Shown here: positions 22,177-38,589 of the stretch, in pieces
Layout of the letters: each line of letters opens with the position of its first letter
Position numbering within the stretch: the stretch's first letter is position 1
Assembly: GCA_965659725.1 (NCBI GenBank)
Contig: CBFHXG010000009.1
Coordinates: 1,391 to 65,390, forward strand
DNA length: 64,000 bases
From: Phaeocystidibacter sp.
GTDB lineage: Bacteria > Bacteroidota > Bacteroidia > Flavobacteriales > Schleiferiaceae
Direction: 5' to 3'
Notes under the pieces: generated by a model
What the model saw: the letters and a program-made list of their open reading frames with translations, nothing else
Told to the model about the DNA's origin: nothing
The model's database searches: none
Program-made: the position numbers and the translations under genes

Positions 22177-25100
22177 CTAGTGGATTACCGTTACCCAACC
22201 TCTCTTCTCGTATTCAGCCGAGGTGAACACCCAAACATAGGTGTCTTCCTTAACCTTCACTCCATCTCCACGGGTTCCATCCCAGAACTCGTTGAACGGA
22301 TCATGTGAGCTGAATACTAAGTTACCCCAACGATCGAAGATCTGGAATCTCGATGGCCCAATACATTCACTACCTACGATCTTGTACTTCTCATTGATCA
22401 TGTCTTCATTTGGCGTGAAGGCATTCGGAATGTGGAGATACTCTTGATCCTCATCTACACCCACATAAATGTAGAATGTACTGTCGCAACCCAACGCATC
22501 CGCGATGGTCAATTCGTGAGAACCTGGACGAATATCTTCCTTCGTTCCAGAGAACAGTTGTCCGTCAAAGTAGAATGAATACGGCGGAGTTCCACCCGAC
22601 ACATCGAGGTCTACATAACCGTCATTCGAAGTAGGACAAGTAGCAAAATCTACTGTAATTCCCGTTTCGATAGGCTCATTCTCAACAACCTCAACCGTGT
22701 CTTCGATTCTACATCCATTAGCATCTATCACCGTGTATGCATACTTACCTACACCCAGGTTGCCAATGTTCATTCCCGATTGACCGTGGCTCCACGTAAC
22801 CACGTATGGAGGAGTTCCACCAAATGGGTTGATATTCGCGCTTCCGCTATTGGCACCACCACAATTGATCCCGATAACATCTTCAACGGTTCCCAAGTCC
22901 TGATTAGGACCAGTGATGTCTACACTATCCGTCTTGTAACAACCCATGGCATCCGTAACAACTACGCCATATCTACCCACTGGTAGGCCTACTGCAGTAT
23001 CCCCTTGATGACCATTGGACCATACCACGTTGTACGGAGGAGTACCTCCAACAAGGTTGACGTGGGCAATACCATCGGCCTCGCCATAGCACATCACCGG
23101 TGTCAACATATTGGCTGCCGCCGATAGATCACGATTCGGTTCTGTAACGTTTCCACTCACCGTAACGGAACATCCGTTTGCATCGGTAATGGTAACCGTA
23201 TACTGACCAGCTAGCAAGTAGTTAAGTGTGTCGGTGGTAGCTCCGTTTGACCAAGACACTTGATACGGTGGAGTACCGCCCGTGTAATTGGTGTAGACAG
23301 ATCCGTTGGCATCTCCTTTACAGAATACATTCTGAATGATGTTCACGTTGGCTGTGATTGGAGAATTCGGTTCAGTAATAACCACCGTAGTGCTATCCGT
23401 ACATCCGTTGGCATCTGTAACAACGGCTGTATAGGACCCCGTGCTTACCTGACTCAATGTGTCATTGGTAGAGCCGTTCGACCAAGAGACATTGTAAGGT
23501 GCAGTACCTCCATTGATCTGGACATACGCCCATCCATCGTTACCACCGAAGCAAGATACATTCTGGATAAATCCATTGGCTGCATTCAGGGATCCCGAAG
23601 GTTGATTAATGGTTATCGAAATTGAATCGGTACATCCGTTCGCATCCGTAACCGTGGCTACATAGGTTCCCGCAGCAAGATTGCTAGCCGTAGTTCCCGC
23701 TTGTCCATTATTCCAGTTGATGGTGTACGGTGAAGTGCCTCCAGTGACTGAGATCGTAGCAAAACCATCTAGCCCGTTAAAACAGTTCACATGGCCTGTG
23801 GCAGTTGGTGTCACTGCAATTCCAGAAGCTGGTTGAGATACACTCACACTATGAGTTGTGTTACATCCACTGGCATCGGTTACCGTTACCGTATATGTTC
23901 CGGCCGTCACTCCCGCTAGATTAGCTGTAGTTGCACCATTTGACCAAGCATAGGTAAAAGGCGCTGTTCCGCCAGTAACATTAATCATCACTGCACCATC
24001 CGATCCGCCGAAGCAATTCACGTCTGTGATAGAGTTCGTGCTAACGGAGATACCGCTAGTTGGCTGGTTGATCGTTACGCTAGCCGTTGCCGTACACCCA
24101 TTGACATCGGTAATTGTTACCGAGTACGTACCCGCGCTAAGGTTACTGACAGTTGCGGTAGTGGCACCATTCGACCATGCATAGGTGTACGGAGACGTTC
24201 CGCCTCCCGGAGTAGCACTAGCCGATCCAGTAGCACCGCCAAAGCAATTCACATGACTTAGTACACCCGCCGAAGCACTCAGCGCATTCGACGGTCCATT
24301 GATGGTGATCGACCCAGATACCACACATCCGTTAGCATCCGTCACCGTCACTGTGTACGTTCCAGTAGCAAGTCCACTGATGTTGGCAGACGTTGCACCA
24401 TTCGACCAGTTGTAGGTATATGGAGCCGTTCCACCTGATACGTTCGCCGCACCTGCACCGGAATTAGAGCCAAAACATGAAACGTGATTAGAAACCACTG
24501 CATTCAATGTCAAGGCCGAAGCCGGCTGGGTGATTACAACAGACTGACTCGTGGTACATCCGTTGGCATCGGTTATTACAACCGTGTACGTACCTGCGGT
24601 GATGTTAGAGATCGTGTCTGTAGTTTGACCCGAGTTCCAAAGCACGCTATAAGGAGCCGTGCCGCCAGAGTAAGTAACATACGCCTCACCAGTCGCTCCG
24701 CCGAAGCATGTAACTTGACTTACAATAGTGGAGGTGCTCGTCAATGCACTACCAGGTTGATTTAGCGTCACATTTGCTGTAGACGTACATCCGTTGGCGT
24801 CTGTCACAGTTACGGTATACGTACCCGCAGCAACGTTAGAGATGGTTGCACCAGTTGCACCATTACTCCATGCATAGGTATATGGAGCCGTGCCGCCTGA
24901 ACCTCCGGCTGTTGCCGTGCCTGTAGAGGCTCCAAAACAATTGATATCCGTAGAGCTAAGGATCGCAACACTCAAAGCGCTAGCCGGCTGTGTGATCACC
25001 ACTGTGGCGGTATCCGAACAACCGTTAGCATCCGTGATGGTTACGGTATATGAACCTGCCGTCAATCCTGTTTGATTGGCACCAATGGCACCGTTGCTCC

Positions 25101-28100
25101 AAGCATACGTGTAAGGAGATGTTCCGCCACTTCCTGTTGCCGTTGCAGATCCTGTTGATCCACCGAAGCAAGCAACGTTAGCGTTCACCGTTGCTGATAC
25201 GTTCAAGGCTGAACTAGGTTCAGTGATCGTTACTGTTTCCGTTGTGGTACATCCGTTCGCATCCGCGATGGTCACAGTATAGGTGCCCGCGATCAAGTTG
25301 TTGATGGTATCCGTAGTGGCACCACTGCTCCAGCTAACACTGTAAGGTGCTGTTCCGCCTGTGTATGTGATATAGGCTAATCCATTATTTCCACCGAAGC
25401 AGCTCACATTCTGAATCACTGCACTCGTGCTGGTAAGTGCCGCTGATGGTTGAGTGATGTTCACACTCAATGTATCGGTACATCCATTCGCATCCGTTAC
25501 AGTAAGGCTATACGTTCCCGCCACCAAGTTGGTGAGGTTTGCCGTTGATGCGCCATTGCTCCATGCATATGTGTATGGTGCCGTCCCACCCGAAGTATTC
25601 ACTTGGATCGAACCGGTAGAGTTGCCGAAGCAATCTACATTCTGACTAGCGATCAGCGATACGCTCAAGGCAGATGCCGGTTGAGTGATGATCACGCTAT
25701 CCATATCAAAACAACCATTCGCATCGGTGATGGTCACAACATACTGACCGGCAGATAGTGCGTTGATAGTAGGTGTGTTTGCACCGTTGCTCCAAGCAAA
25801 CGTGTAAGGAGATGTTCCGCCTGTAGCTGTAGCTGTTGCCGATCCAGTAGGCACTCCAAAACAACTCACGTTTGAATTGATAGCTGCAGATGCATCCAAA
25901 GCACTCGCTGGTTGAGTGATAACCACTGAATCCGAAGCTGAACAACCATTGGCATCTGTGATAATAACAGAATAGGTGCCCGCTGGGATATTCACGATGG
26001 TATCAGACAACCCACCGTTGCTCCATGCAACTGAATAAGGAGGCGTTCCACCAGTGTAGGATACGTGAGCGTTGGCATCACTTCCACCGTAACAGCTCAC
26101 ATTATTGATCACGTTGGTGTTCAAGCTGATGGCAGTAGCGGGTTGGGTAATGGTTACGGTACTACTATCCGTACAACCATTCGCATCTGTAGCAACCACG
26201 GTGTAGACACCTGCCACTAATCCTGTTGCGGTCGCGGTAGTCTGCCCATCGCTCCATGCATACGTGTATGGTGCCGTACCTCCCGTTGTTGTTGCTGTTG
26301 CCGAGCCATTGCTTCCACCGAAACAACTCACATTCGAGTTCACGATGGCACTCACGTTCAATGCGGTTGCTGGTTGACCGATGTTCACTCCGGCGGTAAC
26401 CTGACATCCATTGCTATCGGTTACAGTAACCACATAGCTTCCGGCTGCAAGCGCACTCACCGTATCGCCGCTCATGCCATTACTCCAACTATAGGTATAT
26501 GGTCCGTCACCTCCAGAGGCAACCGCATACGCTACGCCATCGCTTCTGCCAAAGCAGTTCACGGCACTCAATTGAGCGACGGAAAGCGTAAGTGCAGTTG
26601 CTGGTTGAGTGATGGTAACAGAAATACTATCCTGACAACCATTGTCATCGGTAACGGTAACGGTATAACGTCCGGCAGCTAGACCAGAAGCTAGAGGCAC
26701 AGAAGGACCATGGTCCCAGTCGAAACTGTACGGAGGAGTACCTCCGATAGCAGAGGCTAGGATCGCTCCATCGGCACCTCCTAAACAGCTCACGTTATTG
26801 AGAACATTAATCTGAATGCTAATGGCAGAATCAGGTTGGGTCATGGTTACGTGAGCCGTATCCATACATCCATTTGCATCAACTACAGTAACGATATACA
26901 GTCCTGTATCCAGATTGAATGCCGTGTTACCTGTTTGACCATCGCTCCACGTATAGGTATACGGAGGTGTACCACCTGTGGCAGAAGCTGTCGCATATCC
27001 GTCAGATCCACCAAAACAGTTCACTGGGAAAAGAACGGACGCACTTGCATCTACTGCAGAGGCAGGTTCGCCAATGGTCACATAAGCGGTATCGGAACAA
27101 CCAAGGCTGTCTACCACCGCAACAGAATGCGTACCGGCAGATAAGTTAATGGCGGTAGCTGTTGTTTCACCGTTACTCCACAAATAGGTATATGGCGCAG
27201 TGCCACCTTGGGCAAACACATTAGCTGATCCGTCCGATCCACCGATACAGCTGACCTGACCCAGGAGTGTCATAGTAAGCATGATATCTTGAGGAGGCGA
27301 ACTAATAGTAACGTTAGCAGTAACATCACAACCGAGTGAATCGGTTACGGTAACTGAATAGATTCCAGGCGTAAGTCCAGTAGCTGTATCCGTAGTTTGA
27401 CCATCGCTCCATACATAGGTGAATGGTGGGATGCCGTTCGTTACGGTAACAGTGGCGGTACCATCGGCACCACCGAAACAGCTGGTAGTGGTCAATGCCA
27501 CACCAGAGGCGAAAATATCGCTGGCTGGCTGCGTGATCACGACTGAAACGAGATCTTGACAACCCAATGAATCCGTAACGAGTACAGCGTATGTTCCAGC
27601 GGTAAGACCTATTGCGGTATCGCCGGTTTGACCATCACTCCAAGAGTATGTATACGGAGGTGTACCACCCGTTGCATTCGCCCAAGCAGATCCGTCCGAT
27701 CCACCGAAGCAAGTAATAGTATTCACCACCACTCCACTCACAGAAACGGGAGCTGAAGGCTGTGTGATGCGCACACGAGCCGTATCGCTACAACCATTGG
27801 CGTCTGTTACGGTAACGGTGTACCACTGGGCGCTCAGACCCGTAGCTGTGGCTCCACTCGCACCGGTACTCCATAGATATGTATACGGTGCCGTTCCGCC
27901 TGAGGCGCTAGCTGTAGCTTGACCATCATTTCCACCGAAGCAAGATACACTTGCGATCATCGATGCAGATGCCGTGATGCGCGTGGCCGGTTGAGTAACT
28001 GTAACCGCAGCTGTATCTGTACATCCGTTCGCATCGGTTACAATAACGGTGTGTGTTCCGGCCCAGAATCCTGTAGCGGTACGTGTGGTTTGTCCATTGC

Positions 28101-31100
28101 TCCACAAGTACGTATAAGGCGAGGTACCACCCGATGCCGTGGCACGTGCGGTGGCCGTTGAATCTCCAAAGCACAGAACGTTTGTCAATACTGAAGCTCC
28201 ACCCGAAACTGCTGTGCTTGGCTCATCGATAACAATTTGAGCAGTAGCCGTACATCCATTCGAATCCGTAACGGTAACTGTGTGTGTTCCAGCAGTCAAT
28301 GCGATTGTCGTATCCGTTGTTTCACCATTGCTCCATGAGAAGGTATATGGGGGAGTACCACCAGACCCGCTTGCGACAGCGGAACCGTCAGACCCTCCTA
28401 AACAAGACACATCATTTACAAGAGCCGTGGCCGCGGCCACCGCAGTTGGTTGAGTAATAGTAACACTCTCCGTGATGCTACACCCCATGCTGTCTGTAAT
28501 GGTAACCGTGTATGTGCCGATTGCAATCCCCGTAATCGTGTCATTGGTAGATCCCGTGCTCCATAGGTACGTGTATCCACCCCATCCACCAGTCGCGGTA
28601 ACGTATGCCGTTCCATCGCTGGCACCAAAACATGAGATGGTCATGGCATCGATCGCCGATGCTGAAAGTGGTGCACTCGGACCAGGAATAGTGATGTTCG
28701 CGGCATCCGTACATCCTCTGGCATCCGTTACGGTCACCACGTAGGTTGATTGAGCTAGGCCAAAAGCAGAATCACCGGATTGACCATTGCTCCAAGCATA
28801 GGTATAGGGTGGCGTACCACCCGATCCAGCAACAGTAGCCCAGCCATCTGTACTTCCCACACAAGAAACACCCGTAATCTGAACTGCATTTACGTCTGTA
28901 GCAACCGCTGGCTCAGTGATCACAACAGAGGCTGTATCCTGACAACCCAATGAGTCGGTTACGATAACCGTATGTGCTCCAGCTGGTAAGCCTGTTGCAA
29001 TGGCCGAAGTTTGACCATTACTCCACGAGAAAGTATACGGCGGCGTTCCACCCATTGCACTGGCTGATGCCTCACCATCGGCACCGCCAACGCAAGAAAC
29101 AGAAGTGTCCATTTGAGCACTTGCCGCTACTGCAGTAGCTGGTTCTGTGATGGTAACGGTATCCATAACCTGACACCCGTTGCTGTCTGTCACAGTAACA
29201 TAGTGGTCGCCAGCAGCTAAGCCAGTAGCCGTTGCAGAGGTTTGTCCGTCGGTCCAAGCAAATGTGTAAGGAGGTGTGCCTCCAGATCCACTTACTGATG
29301 CCGAACCATCGGCACCGCCAAAGCAACTTACATTGTTTACTACCGAAGTTGAAGAGGTTACCGGGTCTGGTTCATCAATCGTGATCGAGCTAGTTGAAGA
29401 ACAACCAAGACTATCCACTACATAGACCAAATATTGACCTGCAGGAACTCCAGAAAGTGTGTCTCCCGTATGCCCTGTACTCCAAGAAATAATGTACGGA
29501 GGGTTTCCGCCTGAGGCAACACCGTATAGCACGCCGTCACTTGATCCATTACAAGGGATCTCGCCAATGATCGTTGCAGAAACCGCCAGGTCAACACTTG
29601 GTGGCGGAACGTCAAGGGTGTCAGTAGCCTGACATCCGTTGGAGTCTGTTACTGTCAACACGATCTGTCCACCACCTAATCCGGTTACCGTATCGTTAGC
29701 CGTTCCATTATTCCATGTGTAGGTGTAAGGAGCTGTTCCGCCCGAAGCAGTACCGTAAGCAGATCCATCCAAGAAGCCTCCACAAGTTGGAGCAGAGATC
29801 AAGGTGGCTGTGGCTGAAAGCGCTGAAGCAGGCTGCGTGATGGTTACATGGGCTGAATCTTGACAGCCATTTGCGTCGGTCATGATCACGTAATATCCAC
29901 CAGGCACAAGACCAGTAGCTATCTGTCCAGTTTGACCATCGCTCCACAAGTAGGTATAAGGAGTTACTCCACCTGAGCCGATCGCTTCTGCCGTACCGTC
30001 TGACCCTCCAAAACAGTTCACATCCGTTTTTGATATGATGGCCGCCAAAGGCATGGAAGGTTGAGTAATTGTAGCTGTATCGAACTCCGCACATCCGTTA
30101 GCATCCGTGATTTGAACCCAATAGGTTCCGGTGGCTAGTCCTGAGATGCTTTGAGTAGTTGCACCTGTATTCCATGCGTACGAATAAGGAGGAACTCCTC
30201 CAGTAGGCATTACAGAAGCCGTACCATCGTTCGCTCCAAAACAAGTGACGTTCGTAAAGTTGAGGTTCTCTACAAGTGGATCCGGTTCAGTAACCACAAC
30301 CGTGTTCGTATCGGTACAACCCATAGAGTCAGTTACCGTAACAATATAAGAACCAGCCGTAATGCCAGTTATAGTATCACCGGTCATGCCATTGCTCCAG
30401 CTGAAGGTGTAAGGAGGCGCCCCTCCAGTAGCTGATGCATATGCAATACCATCGCTACCGCCGGCACAGGTTATTGCATTTCCGTCTACAGCACCCACGA
30501 GTAACTCGAATGGGGCCTCGAAAATATTTACTGTGTCAATGTCGGTACAACCATTAGCATCGGTAACGATCAAGATGTAATCACCTCCTGCAAGACCATT
30601 GATATTTGCACCTGTCATGCCATTGCTCCAAGAGTACATGTAAGGCGGAGTACCTCCAGTTGCGGTTGCGGTAGCCGCACCATCTAAATCACCTCTACAA
30701 GTTACGCCCACTGTACTCGAAGTGCCGGCCTGAAGTGCAGCGGCAGGCTGAGTGATGGTAACGTTGATTGAATCTTCACAACCATTTGCGTCGGTGACCA
30801 CCACCGTATGTGTTCCAGCTGTTAAGTCGGTTACTACAGCGGTTGTTTGTCCGGAAGACCATAGATAGGTATAAGGAGAAAACCCTCCGCTTACCGTTAC
30901 AGTTGCTTCACCCGCTGCCTCTCCAAAGCAAAGAACGTTCGAATCCACATTTGCAGATACATTTAATGCGGTTGGCTCAGTAAGCGTGAACACGGCTGTA
31001 TCGATACATCCATTCGCATCAGTCACCGTTGCTGTATACGTTCCAGCAACTAGGTTCTGGATGGTATCCGTAGAAGCGCCATTCGACCAAGAAATGGTGT

Positions 31101-33456
31101 ACGGCGATGTTCCGCCCGTGATATCAACATAACCCGAACCATCCGAATCACCATTACAAAGAATGGCATTGATGATAGAGGCCGCAGCCACGAGTTCAGC
31201 ATTTGGTTCTTCGATAGTAACCGTTGCAGAATCTTCACAACCATTGGCATCGGTGACGATAACGCTATATGTACCACCGCTCAACCCAACGTTCGCTGTA
31301 TCTGTAACTCCATTACTCCATTCAAAATCATAGGGTGGAGTTCCTCCTGTTGCGGCTGCAACTGCTGATCCATCTCCATCTCCAAAGCAGAGAACATCTG
31401 TTGAATCCGTGATGGTCACCACAAGAGGTGTTGCCGGCTCAGTGATCGTTACATTAGCAGAGTCGATACATCCATTCGCATCGGTTACCACGACCGAATA
31501 GGTTCCGGCCGGAACTTGAATCGAATTAGTAGTATCACCTGTGTTCCAAAGAATGGAGTAAGGGACGGTACCACCGGATATCTGAACAGTGGCTACACCA
31601 TCCGCTTCACCAAAACATGAAACGGCTGATGTCATTACTCCAATAGCGGCAAGCGCAGAGTCTGGCTGCGTGATAGTCAATGAAAGTGTATCAGTACAAC
31701 CTACACTGTCAGTTATGATAACGGTGTGGCTTCCAGCAGGAAGACCAATAGCAGTATCGCTGGTTTCTCCATTACTCCAAAGGTAGGTGTACGGTGACGT
31801 TCCACCTGAGCCTACTACCACGCCTACACCATCAGATCCTCCGAAACAGGATACAGGCGCTTCCGCAATGGTCAACCCTCCTACAGGCTGAGCAGGTTCT
31901 GTTATAGTTACTTCCAATGAATCGGCACAACCGTTGGCATCGGTTACAACAACGGAATAGGTTCCCGCAACAAGGTTATTACGAGCACTGTCGGTATTTC
32001 CATCGTTCCAAAGAAGCGAATATGGAGGTATGCCCCCAGTAATGAGTAGATCGACTTGACCCGTACTATCGCCAAAACAGAGGATAGGAACCTGATTGTC
32101 GATCACCACTTCAAGTGGAGATGCTGGTTGAACCAGGTCGATGGTAACTGAATCAGTACAACCATTGGCGTCAACTACGGTGAGGGAGTAACTCCCCGCT
32201 CCCATTCCATTGAGCGTATCGTGTATTGCACCCGTATTCCAAGAGAAGGCATATGGCGGAGTACCCCCAGTGGCAAAGCCAGCGAGCTGTCCGTTAAGAT
32301 CACCGAAACAATCTATACTATCTAATATATCTATGTTGGCTATGAGGGAATCGGGTTCCGTGACCGTCACACTGACAGTATCGGTACAACCACCACCGCT
32401 TGTGATATAGATCTCGTAGGTGCCGGCAGACAAACCATAAACGGTATCGCTTGTGGCGCCATTGGACCATAGATAGGTTGTTGGTGGAGCTCCACCCCAT
32501 ACATCAACCCATGCCCAACCGTCGGTATCACCATGACAACTAACCTGACTTCCTTGCTCGGCGATGGCCCAGCCACAACCGCCCAAAGTGAAAACAGGAG
32601 TACTATCAGTGATAGCGATAAATACACTATCTGGGTCGGTAAAGAGATTGTCATTTACACCACCAATATCGGAAGCAGCCCCACCTAAGGCAGAGCTTGC
32701 AGAAGAAGCAGTGGCAAAGATCATTCGGATAGAATCGTTCGGATTGATACCGAGACTATCGAATGGAACGTAGAAATCGAGGAATACTGGATCGTTCTTC
32801 CAACAGTTGGTGTATCCAGCATGGGATCTTTGAGAGTGGGTCGATCCTGGATAAGTAGATAGTTGCGTACCTGTAGTGGTGCCATCTACGTCCATGATCG
32901 AAACCGATCCTTGGCCCGCGGTACCATAGATGATCTCAAGCTCGAATCCAGGGTTACCTGTTACGGCGTTGGGGTCGGCCGTTGCTCCGGTAAAGCCAAT
33001 ACGGTTATCGGTATCGATCAAAAAACTAAACCCGTATGCGCCCGTTACGTTGCGTGCAATGCGGATCCTATACATAAGGAATTCGTCTCCGTTTCCAGGA
33101 GTTCCATCTTGATCACCTAAATACCAATAACCTGCACTCATTGGGTAGTTAGGATTGTCTACGATCTCGGACTTACCGCAATCGTTACCGGTTAGGAGGT
33201 CGGCAGGGGGTTCGGCAGAAAGGTGGAACATTGGAATCATCGGATACTCAAAGTCGAACGACTCATCGATCACCACGGAGGTATCAATAGCACCTCCAGA
33301 TGCGGATATCCACCCATCACTATTAGGGTCGAGTACCGTACCTGGACTACTTTGGTAGATACTACCGATCTGCTGACTCCATCCAAAGAATGAAATTAGG
33401 AGAAGAGTAATAAGCCACACGCGCCGTTTGCAGGGAAGCGAGTAGAGGCTTGCCAT
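22177..33456 (-). CDS. Giant T9SS type B (CHU_C) adhesin with about 44 SprB-type repeats
   Basis: About 76-aa repeats V.C.GG.DG...GGT.PY.Y.WS.G...VTD.NGC (44 counted by eye); C-terminal IPNAFTPN.D..N; probable start MASLY at 33456. Confidence 0.9.
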   Translation of the reverse strand: MASLYSLPCKRRVWLITLLLISFFGWSQQIGSIYQSSPGTVLDPNSDGWISASGGAIDTSVVIDESFDFEYPMIPMFHLSAEPPADLLTGNDCGKSEIVDNPNYPMSAGYWYLGDQDGTPGNGDEFLMYRIRIARNVTGAYGFSFLIDTDNRIGFTGATADPNAVTGNPGFELEIIYGTAGQGSVSIMDVDGTTTGTQLSTYPGSTHSQRSHAGYTNCWKNDPVFLDFYVPFDSLGINPNDSIRMIFATASSASSALGGAASDIGGVNDNLFTDPDSVFIAITDSTPVFTLGGCGWAIAEQGSQVSCHGDTDGWAWVDVWGGAPPTTYLWSNGATSDTVYGLSAGTYEIYITSGGGCTDTVSVTVTEPDSLIANIDILDSIDCFGDLNGQLAGFATGGTPPYAFSWNTGAIHDTLNGMGAGSYSLTVVDANGCTDSVTIDLVQPASPLEVVIDNQVPILCFGDSTGQVDLLITGGIPPYSLLWNDGNTDSARNNLVAGTYSVVVTDANGCADSLEVTITEPAQPVGGLTIAEAPVSCFGGSDGVGVVVGSGGTSPYTYLWSNGETSDTAIGLPAGSHTVIITDSVGCTDTLSLTITQPDSALAAIGVMTSAVSCFGEADGVATVQISGGTVPYSILWNTGDTTNSIQVPAGTYSVVVTDANGCIDSANVTITEPATPLVVTITDSTDVLCFGDGDGSAVAAATGGTPPYDFEWSNGVTDTANVGLSGGTYSVIVTDANGCEDSATVTIEEPNAELVAAASIINAILCNGDSDGSGYVDITGGTSPYTISWSNGASTDTIQNLVAGTYTATVTDANGCIDTAVFTLTEPTALNVSANVDSNVLCFGEAAGEATVTVSGGFSPYTYLWSSGQTTAVVTDLTAGTHTVVVTDANGCEDSINVTITQPAAALQAGTSSTVGVTCRGDLDGAATATATGGTPPYMYSWSNGMTGANINGLAGGDYILIVTDANGCTDIDTVNIFEAPFELLVGAVDGNAITCAGGSDGIAYASATGGAPPYTFSWSNGMTGDTITGITAGSYIVTVTDSMGCTDTNTVVVTEPDPLVENLNFTNVTCFGANDGTASVMPTGGVPPYSYAWNTGATTQSISGLATGTYWVQITDANGCAEFDTATITQPSMPLAAIISKTDVNCFGGSDGTAEAIGSGGVTPYTYLWSDGQTGQIATGLVPGGYYVIMTDANGCQDSAHVTITQPASALSATATLISAPTCGGFLDGSAYGTASGGTAPYTYTWNNGTANDTVTGLGGGQIVLTVTDSNGCQATDTLDVPPPSVDLAVSATIIGEIPCNGSSDGVLYGVASGGNPPYIISWSTGHTGDTLSGVPAGQYLVYVVDSLGCSSTSSITIDEPDPVTSSTSVVNNVSCFGGADGSASVSGSGGTPPYTFAWTDGQTSATATGLAAGDHYVTVTDSNGCQVMDTVTITEPATAVAASAQMDTSVSCVGGADGEASASAMGGTPPYTFSWSNGQTSAIATGLPAGAHTVIVTDSLGCQDTASVVITEPAVATDVNAVQITGVSCVGSTDGWATVAGSGGTPPYTYAWSNGQSGDSAFGLAQSTYVVTVTDARGCTDAANITIPGPSAPLSASAIDAMTISCFGASDGTAYVTATGGWGGYTYLWSTGSTNDTITGIAIGTYTVTITDSMGCSITESVTITQPTAVAAATALVNDVSCLGGSDGSAVASGSGGTPPYTFSWSNGETTDTTIALTAGTHTVTVTDSNGCTATAQIVIDEPSTAVSGGASVLTNVLCFGDSTATARATASGGTSPYTYLWSNGQTTRTATGFWAGTHTVIVTDANGCTDTAAVTVTQPATRITASASMIASVSCFGGNDGQATASASGGTAPYTYLWSTGASGATATGLSAQWYTVTVTDANGCSDTARVRITQPSAPVSVSGVVVNTITCFGGSDGSAWANATGGTPPYTYSWSDGQTGDTAIGLTAGTYAVLVTDSLGCQDLVSVVITQPASDIFASGVALTTTSCFGGADGTATVTVTNGIPPFTYVWSDGQTTDTATGLTPGIYSVTVTDSLGCDVTANVTISSPPQDIMLTMTLLGQVSCIGGSDGSANVFAQGGTAPYTYLWSNGETTATAINLSAGTHSVAVVDSLGCSDTAYVTIGEPASAVDASASVLFPVNCFGGSDGYATASATGGTPPYTYTWSDGQTGNTAFNLDTGLYIVTVVDANGCMDTAHVTMTQPDSAISIQINVLNNVSCLGGADGAILASAIGGTPPYSFDWDHGPSVPLASGLAAGRYTVTVTDDNGCQDSISVTITQPATALTLSVAQLSAVNCFGRSDGVAYAVASGGDGPYTYSWSNGMSGDTVSALAAGSYVVTVTDSNGCQVTAGVNIGQPATALNVSAIVNSNVSCFGGSNGSATATTTGGTAPYTYAWSDGQTTATATGLVAGVYTVVATDANGCTDSSTVTITQPATAISLNTNVINNVSCYGGSDANAHVSYTGGTPPYSVAWSNGGLSDTIVNIPAGTYSVIITDANGCSASDSVVITQPASALDASAAINSNVSCFGVPTGSATATATGGTSPYTFAWSNGANTPTINALSAGQYVVTITDANGCFDMDSVIITQPASALSVSLIASQNVDCFGNSTGSIQVNTSGGTAPYTYAWSNGASTANLTNLVAGTYSLTVTDANGCTDTLSVNITQPSAALTSTSAVIQNVSCFGGNNGLAYITYTGGTAPYSVSWSSGATTDTINNLIAGTYTVTIADANGCTTTETVTITEPSSALNVSATVNANVACFGGSTGSATATGSGGTSPYTYAWSNGAIGANQTGLTAGSYTVTITDANGCSDTATVVITQPASALSVAILSSTDINCFGASTGTATAGGSGGTAPYTYAWSNGATGATISNVAAGTYTVTVTDANGCTSTANVTLNQPGSALTSTSTIVSQVTCFGGATGEAYVTYSGGTAPYSVLWNSGQTTDTISNITAGTYTVVITDANGCTTSQSVVITQPASALTLNAVVSNHVSCFGSNSGAGAANVSGGTAPYTYNWSNGATSANISGLATGTYTVTVTDANGCVVSGSITINGPSNALSASAGVLSHVNCFGGATGSASATPGGGTSPYTYAWSNGATTATVSNLSAGTYSVTITDVNGCTATASVTINQPTSGISVSTNSITDVNCFGGSDGAVMINVTGGTAPFTYAWSNGATTANLAGVTAGTYTVTVTDASGCNTTHSVSVSQPASGIAVTPTATGHVNCFNGLDGFATISVTGGTSPYTINWNNGQAGTTASNLAAGTYVATVTDANGCTDSISITINQPSGSLNAANGFIQNVSCFGGNDGWAYVQINGGTAPYNVSWSNGSTNDTLSQVSTGSYTAVVTDANGCTDSTTVVITEPNSPITANVNIIQNVFCKGDANGSVYTNYTGGTPPYQVSWSNGATTDTLNYLLAGQYTVTITDANGCSVTVSGNVTEPNRDLSAAANMLTPVMCYGEADGIAHVNLVGGTPPYNVVWSNGHQGDTAVGLPVGRYGVVVTDAMGCYKTDSVDITGPNQDLGTVEDVIGINCGGANSGSANINPFGGTPPYVVTWSHGQSGMNIGNLGVGKYAYTVIDANGCRIEDTVEVVENEPIETGITVDFATCPTSNDGYVDLDVSGGTPPYSFYFDGQLFSGTKEDIRPGSHELTIADALGCDSTFYIYVGVDEDQEYLHIPNAFTPNEDMINEKYKIVGSECIGPSRFQIFDRWGNLVFSSHDPFNEFWDGTRGDGVKVKEDTYVWVFTSAEYEKRGWVTVIH

Positions 33457-33640
33457 AGTTACTTGTTTTTGGTCTCTATATTTTTTTATCGCCCTTCGCA
33501 TAAGTTTACTTCAGGACAACTAGTCAAAGCTACACCACTCTAAATCACGAAGTTGTACACCCTTTCCGACATTCTATTCTGACTATTAAAGTAGAATTCG
33601 AGGCCAGTTGCTTAATTTACTGCATACTAACTACGAGTCA

Positions 33641-34819
33641 ATGAGTGCTTCTGGATCTCAAAGCCGGATAAAATATCGGATCAGGAAAGGTCTCTTCTTC
33701 TTTATTCTATTGACACCGCTCTGGAGTTATTGCTGGTGGTTGGCCAGTTCTTCCAGACCATTCAAGGTGGCAATGCTCAATAAAACTACTCAGGAGTACA
33801 ATGATCTTGAGCACTGAGCTTTTACTCGGGTTCTCAATCATCATCGATGAACAAAAGCCAACGGGCAACATTACAATAGCCGACGAGATTTCTTAGGCCC
33901 AATTCCGCAGTCCATCAAGTTATCAAAAACTACTGAAATACAGCAACTTAGCAGGGAGCAAATTGATAGCATTGCTGATAATCTCGATGCTGGGTACTTC
34001 ATTGACACCTATGGGACCTACTACGAAGACCTCGACGACAGAGATTCGTCATTGCCTTCTAAAGGGTTGATATACGGCGGTTTAGAACGCAGCGATGTGT
34101 CGTTGATGCAGGCCCTAGTGGAGAGAAATAAGCTAGTATTGGCCGAGTTCAGCGTCTTTGGATATCCTACGCCTCCAGACATCAAAGAGAGAGCTGAAAA
34201 CATCCTTGGGGCTCGATTTACGGGTTGGGTAGGAAGGTATTGGGAGGAGCTGGACACATCGATATCCGGAGAGATACCCGATTGGATCCCGCACTTGTAT
34301 GAGGAAAAGTACAATAAGCCCTATGCCTTCTCTGGCCCAGGCATAGGATTCTTCCACGATAATGGCGACCTACTCATCATTCCCGAAAGAGAACTAATCC
34401 ACCAGGTACCTATCATGGAAACTGAAAAGGAACTGGCAGCAACGCTCGGCGTAGACCCTTTCGTGAGATATCCATTTTGGTTTGAGATATGTGAACCAGA
34501 CACAGCCGTAAGGTCGCTCTCTCAATTCCGCATCTACCCTGGCGCAGAAGCCCAGGCCAAAATGAGAGCTCTTCAAATCCCAACCTTCTTCCCGGCCGTC
34601 TTAGTACACAGAAATTGGAAAACGATCTACTTCGCCGGCGATTTTACAGATAATACCGTGGGCAGGACATCCCGCCACTTCGCGGGTATAACCCATTTTG
34701 GAAGGTTCTTCTATGACAATAGGAATGTGGGAGACAGATGAAAATTCTTCTGGGAATGGTATGAGCCCTTCGTGTCTGGAACCATTGAGCGATACATGAA
34801 CCCAGACTTGCGCCTTTAG
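33641..34819 (+). pseudogene. Membrane-anchored hypothetical protein, 392 codons, interrupted by three in-frame TGA (33815, 33848, 34739)
   Basis: One continuous reading frame with protein-like sequence on both sides of each stop. Confidence 0.75.
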
Positions 34820-35773
34820 GAAGGGAGTCATGCTTTGTTCCACATCGAGTTCGGCGATGGCCTTGATGATCTCGACCTGTACCGTCTTACTTTCCACTTC
34901 GAATCTGCGAATGAGCTCTGGAAGCAACTCCGGAGCGCCTAACTGCCCGATGGCTCGAGTAGAAAGCTTTCGTATCTCTTCCCTTTTGTGCTTCAACAAG
35001 GCAAGGCCAGCAAACTTCACCTCATACCAGCCCATTCTGAGGCACATGCGGAGTCCCAGCTCAACCAACGAATCATTCTTAGAGTCGAGCCATCCCAAAA
35101 CCTCACTCTTTGCGGCATCTCCGAGGTCGGCACACTCATCTATCAACCTCAATTGCTGCCACTTGGAGACTTCGTTTGCAATGGAGTGAATGGACTTCAA
35201 GGCACGCATTCAGCCAAGAACGATGGCGGCAAATTGCGCTTCATCACGGACCAAGCGTTTGGGGTGATCTACATACTGCATCACCTCGAACAAATAATTT
35301 CGAACTTGAAATTCAGATAGGGCACCAATCGCTTTCACCTTTTGATGCCAGGCTCCAGATTTGAGTAATTCCAACGTTCTTTCAGGTAGACCGATATCTC
35401 GATATATCTTTCGAATCCGCTCTGCCGACTCCCCTTCCAACTGCTGATGCAATTCTACCAGGTAGTCGCTTATCCTGGCATAACTGTGGAAGTCGTACAT
35501 GCCTTTGTTGAGCCAATTGCGCATCCTCACGATGTTCTTTTTCCACTCGCCTTCCTCCATATCGTCATAGATCATTTCCATGATGATCGGCTCGATCTTT
35601 TCGATGAGGTTGGAGGCCTTTCGCTCGGCAATGGCCTTTCTTGCCCGGAGTCGTAAAACGATGATAGTCAGTGCAATGGAAACAGAAAAGAGTGCCATGG
35701 AAAATGCCACGATGATCTGAAATCTCAGATCGTGAGATAGATACCAGTTCCAAATATCCTGAAGGGTGGTCAT
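34820..35773 (-). pseudogene. HEAT-repeat membrane protein split by an in-frame TGA (35210-35212), 3' end apparently truncated
   Basis: ORFs 35210-35773 and 34601-35209 are in the same frame (..AIVLG*MRAL..); the frame runs into the convergent gene without its own stop. Confidence 0.7.
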
Positions 35774-35801: not shown

Positions 35802-36167
35802 TTATCGCAAAAGTTTCTTTACACGAAGAATTAACTCTTTCGGATTGAAAGGCTTCGTCATAAAGTCGTCTGCTCCCAGATCGAAAGCATCGATAACCGT
35901 ATCCTCAGTCTTCAATCCGGTTAGCAACAGGACCCGCATTTCTGCATTGTTTTCCTTGACGCTTTTGAGGAGTTCCATCCCACTTAGTCCGGGCATCATC
36001 ACGTCTGAGATGATCAGATCGAACTCTCCCCCATTCTTGAGCTTATCAATGGCTTCCTCACCACTTGAGGCTGTATCAACACTATAGCCCTCCTTTTTCA
36101 GCTTGAATTCAACTGCTTTGAGGAGGATCGCTTCGTCGTCTACTACTAAGATCTTTTGACCTGCCAT
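35802..36167 (-). CDS. Single-domain response regulator
   Basis: ILVVDD, DVMMP (phospho-Asp), LT, FMTKPF; start MAGQK. Confidence 0.92.
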   Translation of the reverse strand: MAGQKILVVDDEAILLKAVEFKLKKEGYSVDTASSGEEAIDKLKNGGEFDLIISDVMMPGLSGMELLKSVKENNAEMRVLLLTGLKTEDTVIDAFDLGADDFMTKPFNPKELILRVKKLLR

Positions 36168-36378
36168 GGAGGTAACTTTCTCTGGGGTGGTGCGGCTAAT
36201 ATACCTACATCCTCTAAAATAGCCGTTTTTGAAGGTTTCAAAATTTAACAAACGCGTGATTTTTCAGCGGTTAAGGCAGAATTCCCTTACGGGTTAAGCC
36301 ATCCTCTTACCAATCATCGAAACTAACCTCCCGTTTATCGAAAAACCCCAGCGGTTACGCGTTCAGTTCTCTAGCTCA

Positions 36379-36567
36379 ATGAAGAATGATGTTACCATTG
36401 AAGTAGTAAACCTCTCCGGACAAATCCTCTACTCTAAAGAGAACATTAGTCCTTACGGTGAGCACACCTTCTCATTTGATACGGGTCTGAACGAAGCATA
36501 CGTTTACGTCGTACGCATCATCGACACCCAGACAGAAGAAATGTGGAGTGAGAAGATCATCTATTGA
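36379..36567 (+). CDS. Small T9SS-CTD-like ORF or gene remnant
   Basis: IEVVNLSGQIL...Y.VRI...KII resembles a type A CTD; no signal peptide. Confidence 0.4.
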   Translation: MKNDVTIEVVNLSGQILYSKENISPYGEHTFSFDTGLNEAYVYVVRIIDTQTEEMWSEKIIY

Positions 36568-38020: not shown

Positions 38021-38031
38021 GTGAAGGGAGT

Positions 38032-38589
38032 TAGAGTGTTAGGGTGTTAGGGTGTTAGGGTGTTAGGGTGTTAAAGTTACTTGAGATTCGACAACCTCAA
38101 ATCTCAATTCTTCACCTTGTGGGTTTTAAACCCAAGTATTATGTCATTATTTGCAAAAACCATAGAAGAGTTGCATTGTTGGCAAGCGGCTCGCAACCTG
38201 GTGGTAATGGTAGATGACCTTATCAGAATGAACCCCGCTCTCAGCAAAAATTATAACCTTAAAGATCAACTCTTTCGTGCGAGTTTAAGTGTTATGAACA
38301 ACATAGCTGAGGGTTTTGGTAGATACCACAAGAAAGAGTTCATGCGATTCCTGGACATTGCCAAAGCGAGCTGCGTAGAGGTTGAAAGTATGTCTTACGT
38401 ACTGGCAGACCTGAAGCTTATTGAAGCTTCTGAAAGTGTTGAGCTCAAGAAGCAAATCACTATTACAAAACGTAAAACTGCAGGGCTGCTAGCTCATCTT
38501 TACAGGACCAATGAAAGCCAACAGACTGCCAAAACCGCAGAGTGATAGGTTAAACACTAACTCTAACACCTTAACACTCTAACACTCTA
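38032..38589. mobile_element. Putative IVS-like cassette: four-helix-bundle gene between 30-bp inverted octamer arrays
   Basis: 38032-38061 complementary to 38560-38589 (27 Watson-Crick + 3 G-U); lies antisense inside a minus-strand operon. Confidence 0.6.
38141..38545 (+). CDS. Four helix bundle protein (23S rRNA IVS protein / TIGR02436-like, Avd-related)
   Basis: EL.CWQ.A, QL.RAS.S...NIAEG.GR...KEF..FL.IA..S..E motifs; start MSLF. Confidence 0.92.
   Translation: MSLFAKTIEELHCWQAARNLVVMVDDLIRMNPALSKNYNLKDQLFRASLSVMNNIAEGFGRYHKKEFMRFLDIAKASCVEVESMSYVLADLKLIEASESVELKKQITITKRKTAGLLAHLYRTNESQQTAKTAE

Follow-up and report, generated by a model that had tools for sequence, protein, structure and literature searches.

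Why should two adjacent bacterial genes be interrupted in frame four times, each time by TGA? The question is raised by positions 33641 to 35773 of a 64-kb stretch of Phaeocystidibacter sp. DNA (contig CBFHXG010000009.1), hereafter the window, to which our statements on genome content refer. A first-pass annotation made from the letters alone had offered three options for the interrupted pair, a plus-strand gene and a minus-strand gene with HEAT repeats: recent pseudogenisation through CGA to TGA mutation, possibly driven by a C5 methylase; readthrough or recoding specific to the locus; or assembly error. Comparison with orthologs, with near-identical contigs from other samples and with the gene order of relatives makes it highly probable, in our judgement, that both genes are recent pseudogenes within a partly deleted polysaccharide-synthase cluster.

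In-frame TGA codons and the residues they replace

The plus-strand frame opens with ATG at 33641, runs through TGA codons at 33815–33817 (TGA 1; EH*AF), 33848–33850 (TGA 2; HHR*TK) and 34739–34741 (TGA 3; DR*KFFW), and ends with TAG at 34817–34819 (translation 33641–34822). The minus-strand frame, read from 35773, holds a single TGA (TGA 4, the reverse complement of 35210–35212; VLG*MRAL) and stays open down to 34601. Translation of both frames bore out the four codons at the positions that the first-pass annotation had listed, and the letters agree with its count of TGA-A at three of the four stops, the remaining one being TGA-G.

Homology searches recovered 35 homologs of the plus-strand gene, the closest being 56–57% identical over 97–99% of the gene length, and ten orthologs of the HEAT gene with 53–61% identity and lengths of 367–371 aa. 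No relative nearer than 61% protein identity was found among 5.8 billion proteins, and the species-representative genomes gave two matches only. In the ortholog alignments of the plus-strand gene (A1) and of the HEAT gene (A2), all four positions are occupied by sense codons, and never by stops, in intact orthologs. The column of TGA 1 in A1 is Arg (EHRAF), that of TGA 2 is Tyr or Phe, with Trp in P0009, and that of TGA 3 is Arg or Lys (DRRKFFW); in A2, the column of TGA 4 is Gly in 10 of 10 close orthologs (VLGGKRA). The stops therefore fall in four residue classes, with Cys or Sec in none, and these columns indicate that TGA 2 probably descends from TGG and TGA 4 probably from GGA. Alignment to orthologs was the check that the first-pass annotation had itself proposed for recoding; the residues replaced (R, Y/F/W, R/K and G) are unrelated, the outcome that it had named as counting against that option, and recoding consequently fails by the annotation's own test.

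Stops and sense codons in the population

The locus is carried by more than 15 independent metagenome assemblies at 99.6–100% identity. Our population set consisted of eight contigs fetched from other samples (among them L002–L008; 99.6–100% identical to the window) and contigs of 13 runs (X1–X13) from several studies, with variants and haplotypes read on the assembled contigs. Among the sources of the locus are the ERR121669xx series of runs, ERR4674074, ERR13395300 and the ERZ23491561 sample. All main contigs read have TGA 2 and TGA 4; they come from more than 15 runs and at least six studies, with word depths of up to 54x. The 187-aa N-terminal HEAT fragment that ends at TGA 4 is on record for 13 contigs across NCBI, ENA and Logan. 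Because many independent assemblies carry the same TGAs, assembly error is excluded as the source of the stops, and the third option of the first-pass annotation is refuted.

TGA 1 and TGA 3 are polymorphic. Position 33815 is C, giving CGA (Arg), in L004, L005, L007, X1–X4, X6, X8–X10 and X12, and T, giving TGA, in the window, L002, L003, L006 and L008. Position 34739 is likewise C (CGA, Arg) in L003, L004, L005, L007, L008, X9 and X13, and one sample, X11, contains both the C and the T allele. The T alleles at the two positions recur across independent samples, and the CGA alleles encode exactly the residue of the orthologs, Arg; at two of the four stops, the change from CGA to TGA is directly visible. 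Each of the four combinations of the alleles at 33815 and 34739 was encountered within a single contig, with TT found in L002, L006 and the window; CT in X4 and X8; TC in L003 and L008; and CC in L004, L005, L007 and X9.

A partly deleted polysaccharide-synthase cluster

Synteny was compared with five relatives, namely four uncultured Flavobacteriia contigs and Phaeocystidibacter luteus LMG 25704. All five share one locus order: an S4/Hsp15-like gene; three divergent genes encoding proteins of ~740–825 aa, 427 aa and, with fn3 domains, 766–1002 aa; a response regulator; the HEAT gene; a GT2 glycosyltransferase of 486–488 aa; the convergent ortholog of our plus-strand gene (346–520 aa; the g520 family); and a giant SprB-like protein. 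The products of the three divergent genes are secreted or located at the cell surface. The GT2 protein is the best conserved of the cluster, with 83–88% identity among relatives.

Much of this cluster is gone from the window. With the L009 proteins as tblastn queries against all 64 kb, the S4 protein matched at 79% identity and the response regulator at 78% over all 121 aa. The HEAT protein matched at 58.5%, over aa 1–323 of 370 only (35773 to 34805); g520 matched at 56%, over aa 1–386 of 520 only (33641 to 34798); the first of the divergent proteins (g813) matched over aa 744–813 only (36355 to 36564); and GT2, g427 and g1002 had no match anywhere in the window. The two pseudogenes abut at ~34799–34805 because ~2.0 kb, a size calculated from L009 coordinates, has been deleted between them; this junction (34799–34805) marks the loss, relative to L009, of HEAT codons 324–370, the whole GT2 gene and g520 codons 387–520. 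A second deletion of ~6.7 kb took g1002, g427 and most of g813. The near-identical contigs are all collinear with the window across both deletion junctions.

What is left can be delimited precisely. The g520 pseudogene occupies 33641–34819 on the plus strand, its part homologous to aa 1–386 lying at 33641–34798 and its last codons (DLRL*) being HEAT antisense. The membrane-anchored HEAT pseudogene lies on the minus strand at 34805–35773 and is homologous to aa 1–323 of the orthologs; the 68 codons by which its open reading frame (ORF) reads on (34601–34804, minus strand) are antisense to the plus-strand pseudogene and open by chance. The response regulator (35805–36167, minus strand) is stand-alone and intact, and was the first gene of the former operon of response regulator, HEAT and GT2. 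At 36355–36567 on the plus strand is a C-terminal relic of the 813-aa secreted protein, 62–70 aa long and resembling a type IX secretion sorting domain, with a weak match to Por_Secre_tail. This relic is the sole trace of the three genes that, in relatives, separate the response regulator from the S4/Hsp15-like gene. Within the HEAT remnant, an in-frame deletion of 276 bp (34851–35126), bounded by 5 nt of microhomology in the form of the direct repeat TCGGC, was present at about half depth in X8, a marine plankton metagenome.

These results qualify what the first-pass annotation had said of the context. Its statement that the frames are otherwise intact holds for the homologous parts; both genes lack their 3' ends, and in 34601–34804 the minus-strand ORF contains no HEAT gene sequence. 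Similarly, it had seen no other interrupted gene, and there is indeed no further split ORF pair, yet one more broken gene exists in the form of the relic at 36355–36564. The deletions, including that of the whole synthase gene, had been overlooked.

In public annotation (NCBI, ENA and Logan), pieces of the pseudogenes have entries of their own, as proteins of 187, 202 and 211–237 aa, and the 202-aa "protein" is in part HEAT gene and in part antisense read-on. These entries should be flagged as pseudogene fragments.

The lost synthase and its accessory proteins

The GT2 protein of L009 is a multi-transmembrane protein in which Pfam GT2 domains pass their cut-offs and which matches the PgaC_IcaA, NodC, CelA and Chitin_synth_2 models. 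Its score against PgaC_IcaA is 147.5 bits, the equivalog cut-off being 422, and those for NodC and CelA are lower. By sequence, the protein is of the processive-synthase type, a family-level resemblance to which we attach no polymer. Processive GT2 enzymes drive several exopolysaccharide systems, including PgaC/IcaA for poly-N-acetylglucosamine, BcsA for cellulose and NodC for chito-oligosaccharides. The cluster of the relatives is similar to such synthase-dependent systems in that a multi-transmembrane GT2 stands beside membrane accessory proteins and a response regulator. It differs in that the GT2 scores fall far below the equivalog cut-offs and that HEAT and g520 are not homologs of PgaA, PgaB or PgaD, nor of BcsB or BcsC; in the window, moreover, the synthase is absent.

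The minus-strand gene is recognised by Pfam HEAT_2, whereas the plus-strand gene belongs to no family in Pfam or NCBIfam. In an AlphaFold model of its intact ortholog P0007 (pLDDT 88, pTM 0.75), a transmembrane helix at the N-terminus is followed by an alpha/beta core, and the C-terminal domain is small. Searched against folds in the PDB, the model gave weak whole-chain matches, the useful ones being at the level of domains: the core matched class-I glutamine-amidotransferase-like proteins (3fij, 2vdj, 3soz), and the C-terminus matched the SPOR peptidoglycan-binding domain of CwlC (1x60) with a probability of 0.99. The g520 family is thus predicted from this model to be membrane-anchored with a GATase1-like core, and it is uncharacterised. 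The SPOR domain is optional in the family and, in the window, its part falls in the deleted stretch.

The module itself (7603–12125 in L009, and also in L010–L014) is conserved in Flavobacteriales, is uncharacterised and adjoins the SprB-like giant gene. The combination of response regulator, HEAT, GT2 and g520 is intact in the cultured Phaeocystidibacter luteus, where this cluster could be studied, a side product of the present analysis.

Decay of the remnants

Population single-nucleotide polymorphisms (SNPs) in the plus-strand remnant number 12, comprising 2 sense/nonsense, 8 nonsynonymous and 2 synonymous changes, while the flanking intact genes have 12 nonsynonymous and 12 synonymous SNPs. 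Remnants and orthologs share 56–58% identity, about as much as intact orthologs share among themselves (56–59% for HEAT, 54–63% for g520), and on this scale of sequence divergence the inactivation of both genes is recent.

The assembly graph has three low-depth side branches, which depart at 33850/33863 (X1–X3; the X3 contig has 1800 nt), 35317 (X5; 1913 nt) and 36316 (X9; 542 nt). Given how a k=31 graph forks, the branch at 33850 most likely carries another third base in TGA 2; in the branch at 36316, the frame of the g813 relic stays open for ten more codons. No 30-mer of the side branches was found in the window, in the fetched loci or among JGI metagenome contigs. The side-branch contigs could represent structural variants or less-decayed strains.

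The sequence of events that we propose begins with the two large deletions: that of ~2 kb took away the synthase together with the 3' ends of the genes on both sides, and that of ~6.7 kb the three divergent genes. Because of these deletions, including that of the whole synthase gene, the accessory genes would then have lost their function and gathered neutral point mutations. Four one-step nonsense changes would suffice for the stops: CGA>TGA twice, as seen in the population, and in all probability TGG>TGA and GGA>TGA. Two of the stops and both large deletions are common to all contigs read, with the two CGA>TGA changes and the 276-bp deletion still segregating. At these TGAs, the ribosome would be expected simply to terminate, with nothing recoded.

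The option of recent pseudogenisation through CGA>TGA hence stands as regards decay in general and the mutation at 33815 and 34739, and fails for the other two stops, which do not derive from CGA. Its suggested cause, a C5 methylase, found no support. No C5-methyltransferase motif IV of the PCQxFS type was detected in six-frame translations of the window, the contexts of the two CGA sites differ (CAC-CGA-G and AGA-CGA-A), and 2 of the 5 C>T SNPs in the plus-strand gene are at CpG. We accordingly rejected methylase- or CpG-driven mutation.

Several observations weigh against pseudogenisation. All four stops are TGA, which has a probability of P = 0.003–0.009 in a single-step mutation-path model applied to the codons of these genes; under the same model, the probability that any single stop type arises four times is P = 0.05, and with transitions only, TGA accounts for ~44% of outcomes in the plus-strand gene. 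We regard the TGA-only pattern as mildly unusual, a post-hoc oddity that is not compelling. The remnants extend over ~2.1 kb without any frameshift. The nonsynonymous excess in the plus-strand remnant (10:2, with the 2 nonsense changes counted, versus 12:12) is suggestive of decay, with P = 0.055 in a one-sided Fisher test, but is based on few sites. The HEAT remnant and the response regulator together have 3 SNPs, compared with 12 in the plus-strand remnant (binomial P = 0.04), the HEAT remnant having had 0 SNPs at first and 3 after low-depth runs were added. The contig haplotypes could be chimeric. Finally, the absence of the synthase is a finding on the scale of the window, and a relocated copy elsewhere in the genome is possible.

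Alternative explanations

The uniform TGA and the lack of frameshifts would also be consistent with leaky termination or programmed readthrough, in which UGA is read through often enough for one or both proteins to persist and still matter. An example would be a HEAT protein that continues to work with the response regulator, which is intact and, like the HEAT remnant, poor in SNPs; the CGA and TGA alleles would then be variants in expression level, and near-cognate insertion of Trp at TGA 2 would suit the aromatic column. However, deletion has taken the synthase partner as well as the 3' end of each gene, the stops are conserved in no ortholog, and at two of them the ancestral sense codon persists in the population. 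Insertion of Trp where orthologs have Arg or an invariant Gly would be non-conservative, the 276-bp deletion in the HEAT remnant is tolerated, and the SNPs of the plus-strand remnant are mainly nonsynonymous. Nor was a stable hairpin found in the 60 nt after each TGA when compared with shuffled sequences (z = -1.3, 0.0, +1.4 and +0.7). We consider leaky termination of this kind improbable. A more specific form, in which the TGA-only pattern is not chance, low-level expression through leaky UGA persists for the HEAT remnant alongside the response regulator and perhaps for the plus-strand gene, and the CGA/TGA alleles are maintained as a graded expression polymorphism, appears very improbable to us. 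Programmed readthrough also lacks its hallmark of a conserved stop: no ortholog keeps one there, and at two of the four positions part of the population has CGA instead.

A different possibility is that loss of the cluster was itself adaptive, for example if a surface polysaccharide were targeted by phages or grazers, and that knock-outs were positively selected. The plus-strand gene, 1.2 kb long, has taken three separate nonsense hits, of which two are at intermediate frequency, and the cluster has undergone several deletions. Both facts could be read in this way, and the four haplotypes could mean recurrent mutation. Yet once TGA 2 and the synthase deletion were fixed, further hits would gain nothing, and violations of the four-gamete rule also occur between ordinary SNPs (33815 versus 34665), which fits recombination or chimeric contigs. 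The chance that selection drove these losses seems to us very small.

Reading of TGA as an amino acid, as selenocysteine or as Trp or Gly in the manner of genetic codes 4 and 25, either locally or genome-wide, is suggested at most by the Gly column of TGA 4 and the occasional Trp in the column of TGA 2. In translation table 4, TGA encodes Trp in Mycoplasmatales and others, and in table 25 it encodes Gly in Gracilibacteria and Absconditabacteria; the present locus resembles these reassignments in having in-frame TGA within conserved coding sequence, at Gly and sometimes-Trp columns. It differs in that TGA is a frequent true stop, in frame in these two broken genes only and spread over four residue classes. 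As the first-pass annotation had maintained, TGA is a normal stop elsewhere: it ends 20 of the 53 long ORFs of the window, including the three named in that annotation (19070, 22175 and 62454), and among the Pfam-confirmed genes that it terminates are the ATP-synthase delta subunit atpH (44157) and a TonB-dependent receptor (22175). In-frame TGA is missing from ~50 other long ORFs, and the neighbouring ORF of 3774 codons has zero. Same-frame ORF pairs in the window (at least 100 aa each, with a single stop between them) included no other split gene, all being separate genes. Genome-wide reassignment was therefore ruled out by stop usage, by essential genes that end in TGA and by the mixed columns.

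Selenocysteine fares no better. Its insertion in bacteria requires UGA followed by a selenocysteine insertion sequence (SECIS) hairpin, together with SelA, SelB, SelC and SelD, and the likeness here ends with the in-frame UGA. No tRNA gene, including that for tRNA-Sec, was found in the 64-kb window, and no Rfam family, including SECIS, reached the gathering score there; in addition, there is no Cys or Sec column and no hairpin, on which combined grounds we rejected selenocysteine. To our knowledge, the HEAT and g520 families are not among the known selenoproteins. The readthrough-or-recoding option of the first-pass annotation thus fails, and we give recoding in any of these forms almost no credence. 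Equally negligible is the probability of an assembly or sequencing artefact over a true genome with sense codons, since the CGA read at two of the four sites in some assemblies is set against identical TGAs at 33848 and 35210 in every main contig, the 187-aa fragment from 13 contigs and the recurring T alleles.

Decay in progress

Bacterial pseudogenes commonly arise by nonsense mutation and deletion, and genes decay after the loss of their partners under a deletional bias. The two remnants share much with such ordinary pseudogenes, including sense codons in the orthologs, truncation, a lost partner gene and deletions in progress, together with a suggestive excess of nonsynonymous SNPs. They differ in that all four stops are TGA and that two of these still segregate with sense codons in a wild population of ~99.9% identity. 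The kind of event is already known, being textbook gene decay, and it has little mechanistic weight; its modest value is that of a natural snapshot of the order of events, in which the synthase and its neighbours have been lost by deletion, two stops are common to all contigs read, and two further stops and the 276-bp deletion are segregating.

Other features of the window

Next to the g520 pseudogene, the SprB-like repeat protein is encoded on the minus strand at 22177–33501 (3774 aa) and contains many repeats of ~75–80 aa with a GGTxPYxxxWS motif. In the 4.9 kb compared, this gene has 16 population SNPs (9 nonsynonymous and 7 synonymous).

Beyond the cluster, a gene of the 23S-rRNA-IVP family (38081–38545) stands between two repeat arrays in inverted orientation. 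The array just upstream of the gene, at 38025–38073, consists of ~6 tandem copies of the 8-bp unit AGGGTGTT, and that just downstream, at 38563–38589, of ~3.4 copies of the reverse complement, CTAACACC. The copy number of the upstream array varies within the population, with one copy fewer in L003 and L008 and three fewer in L002.

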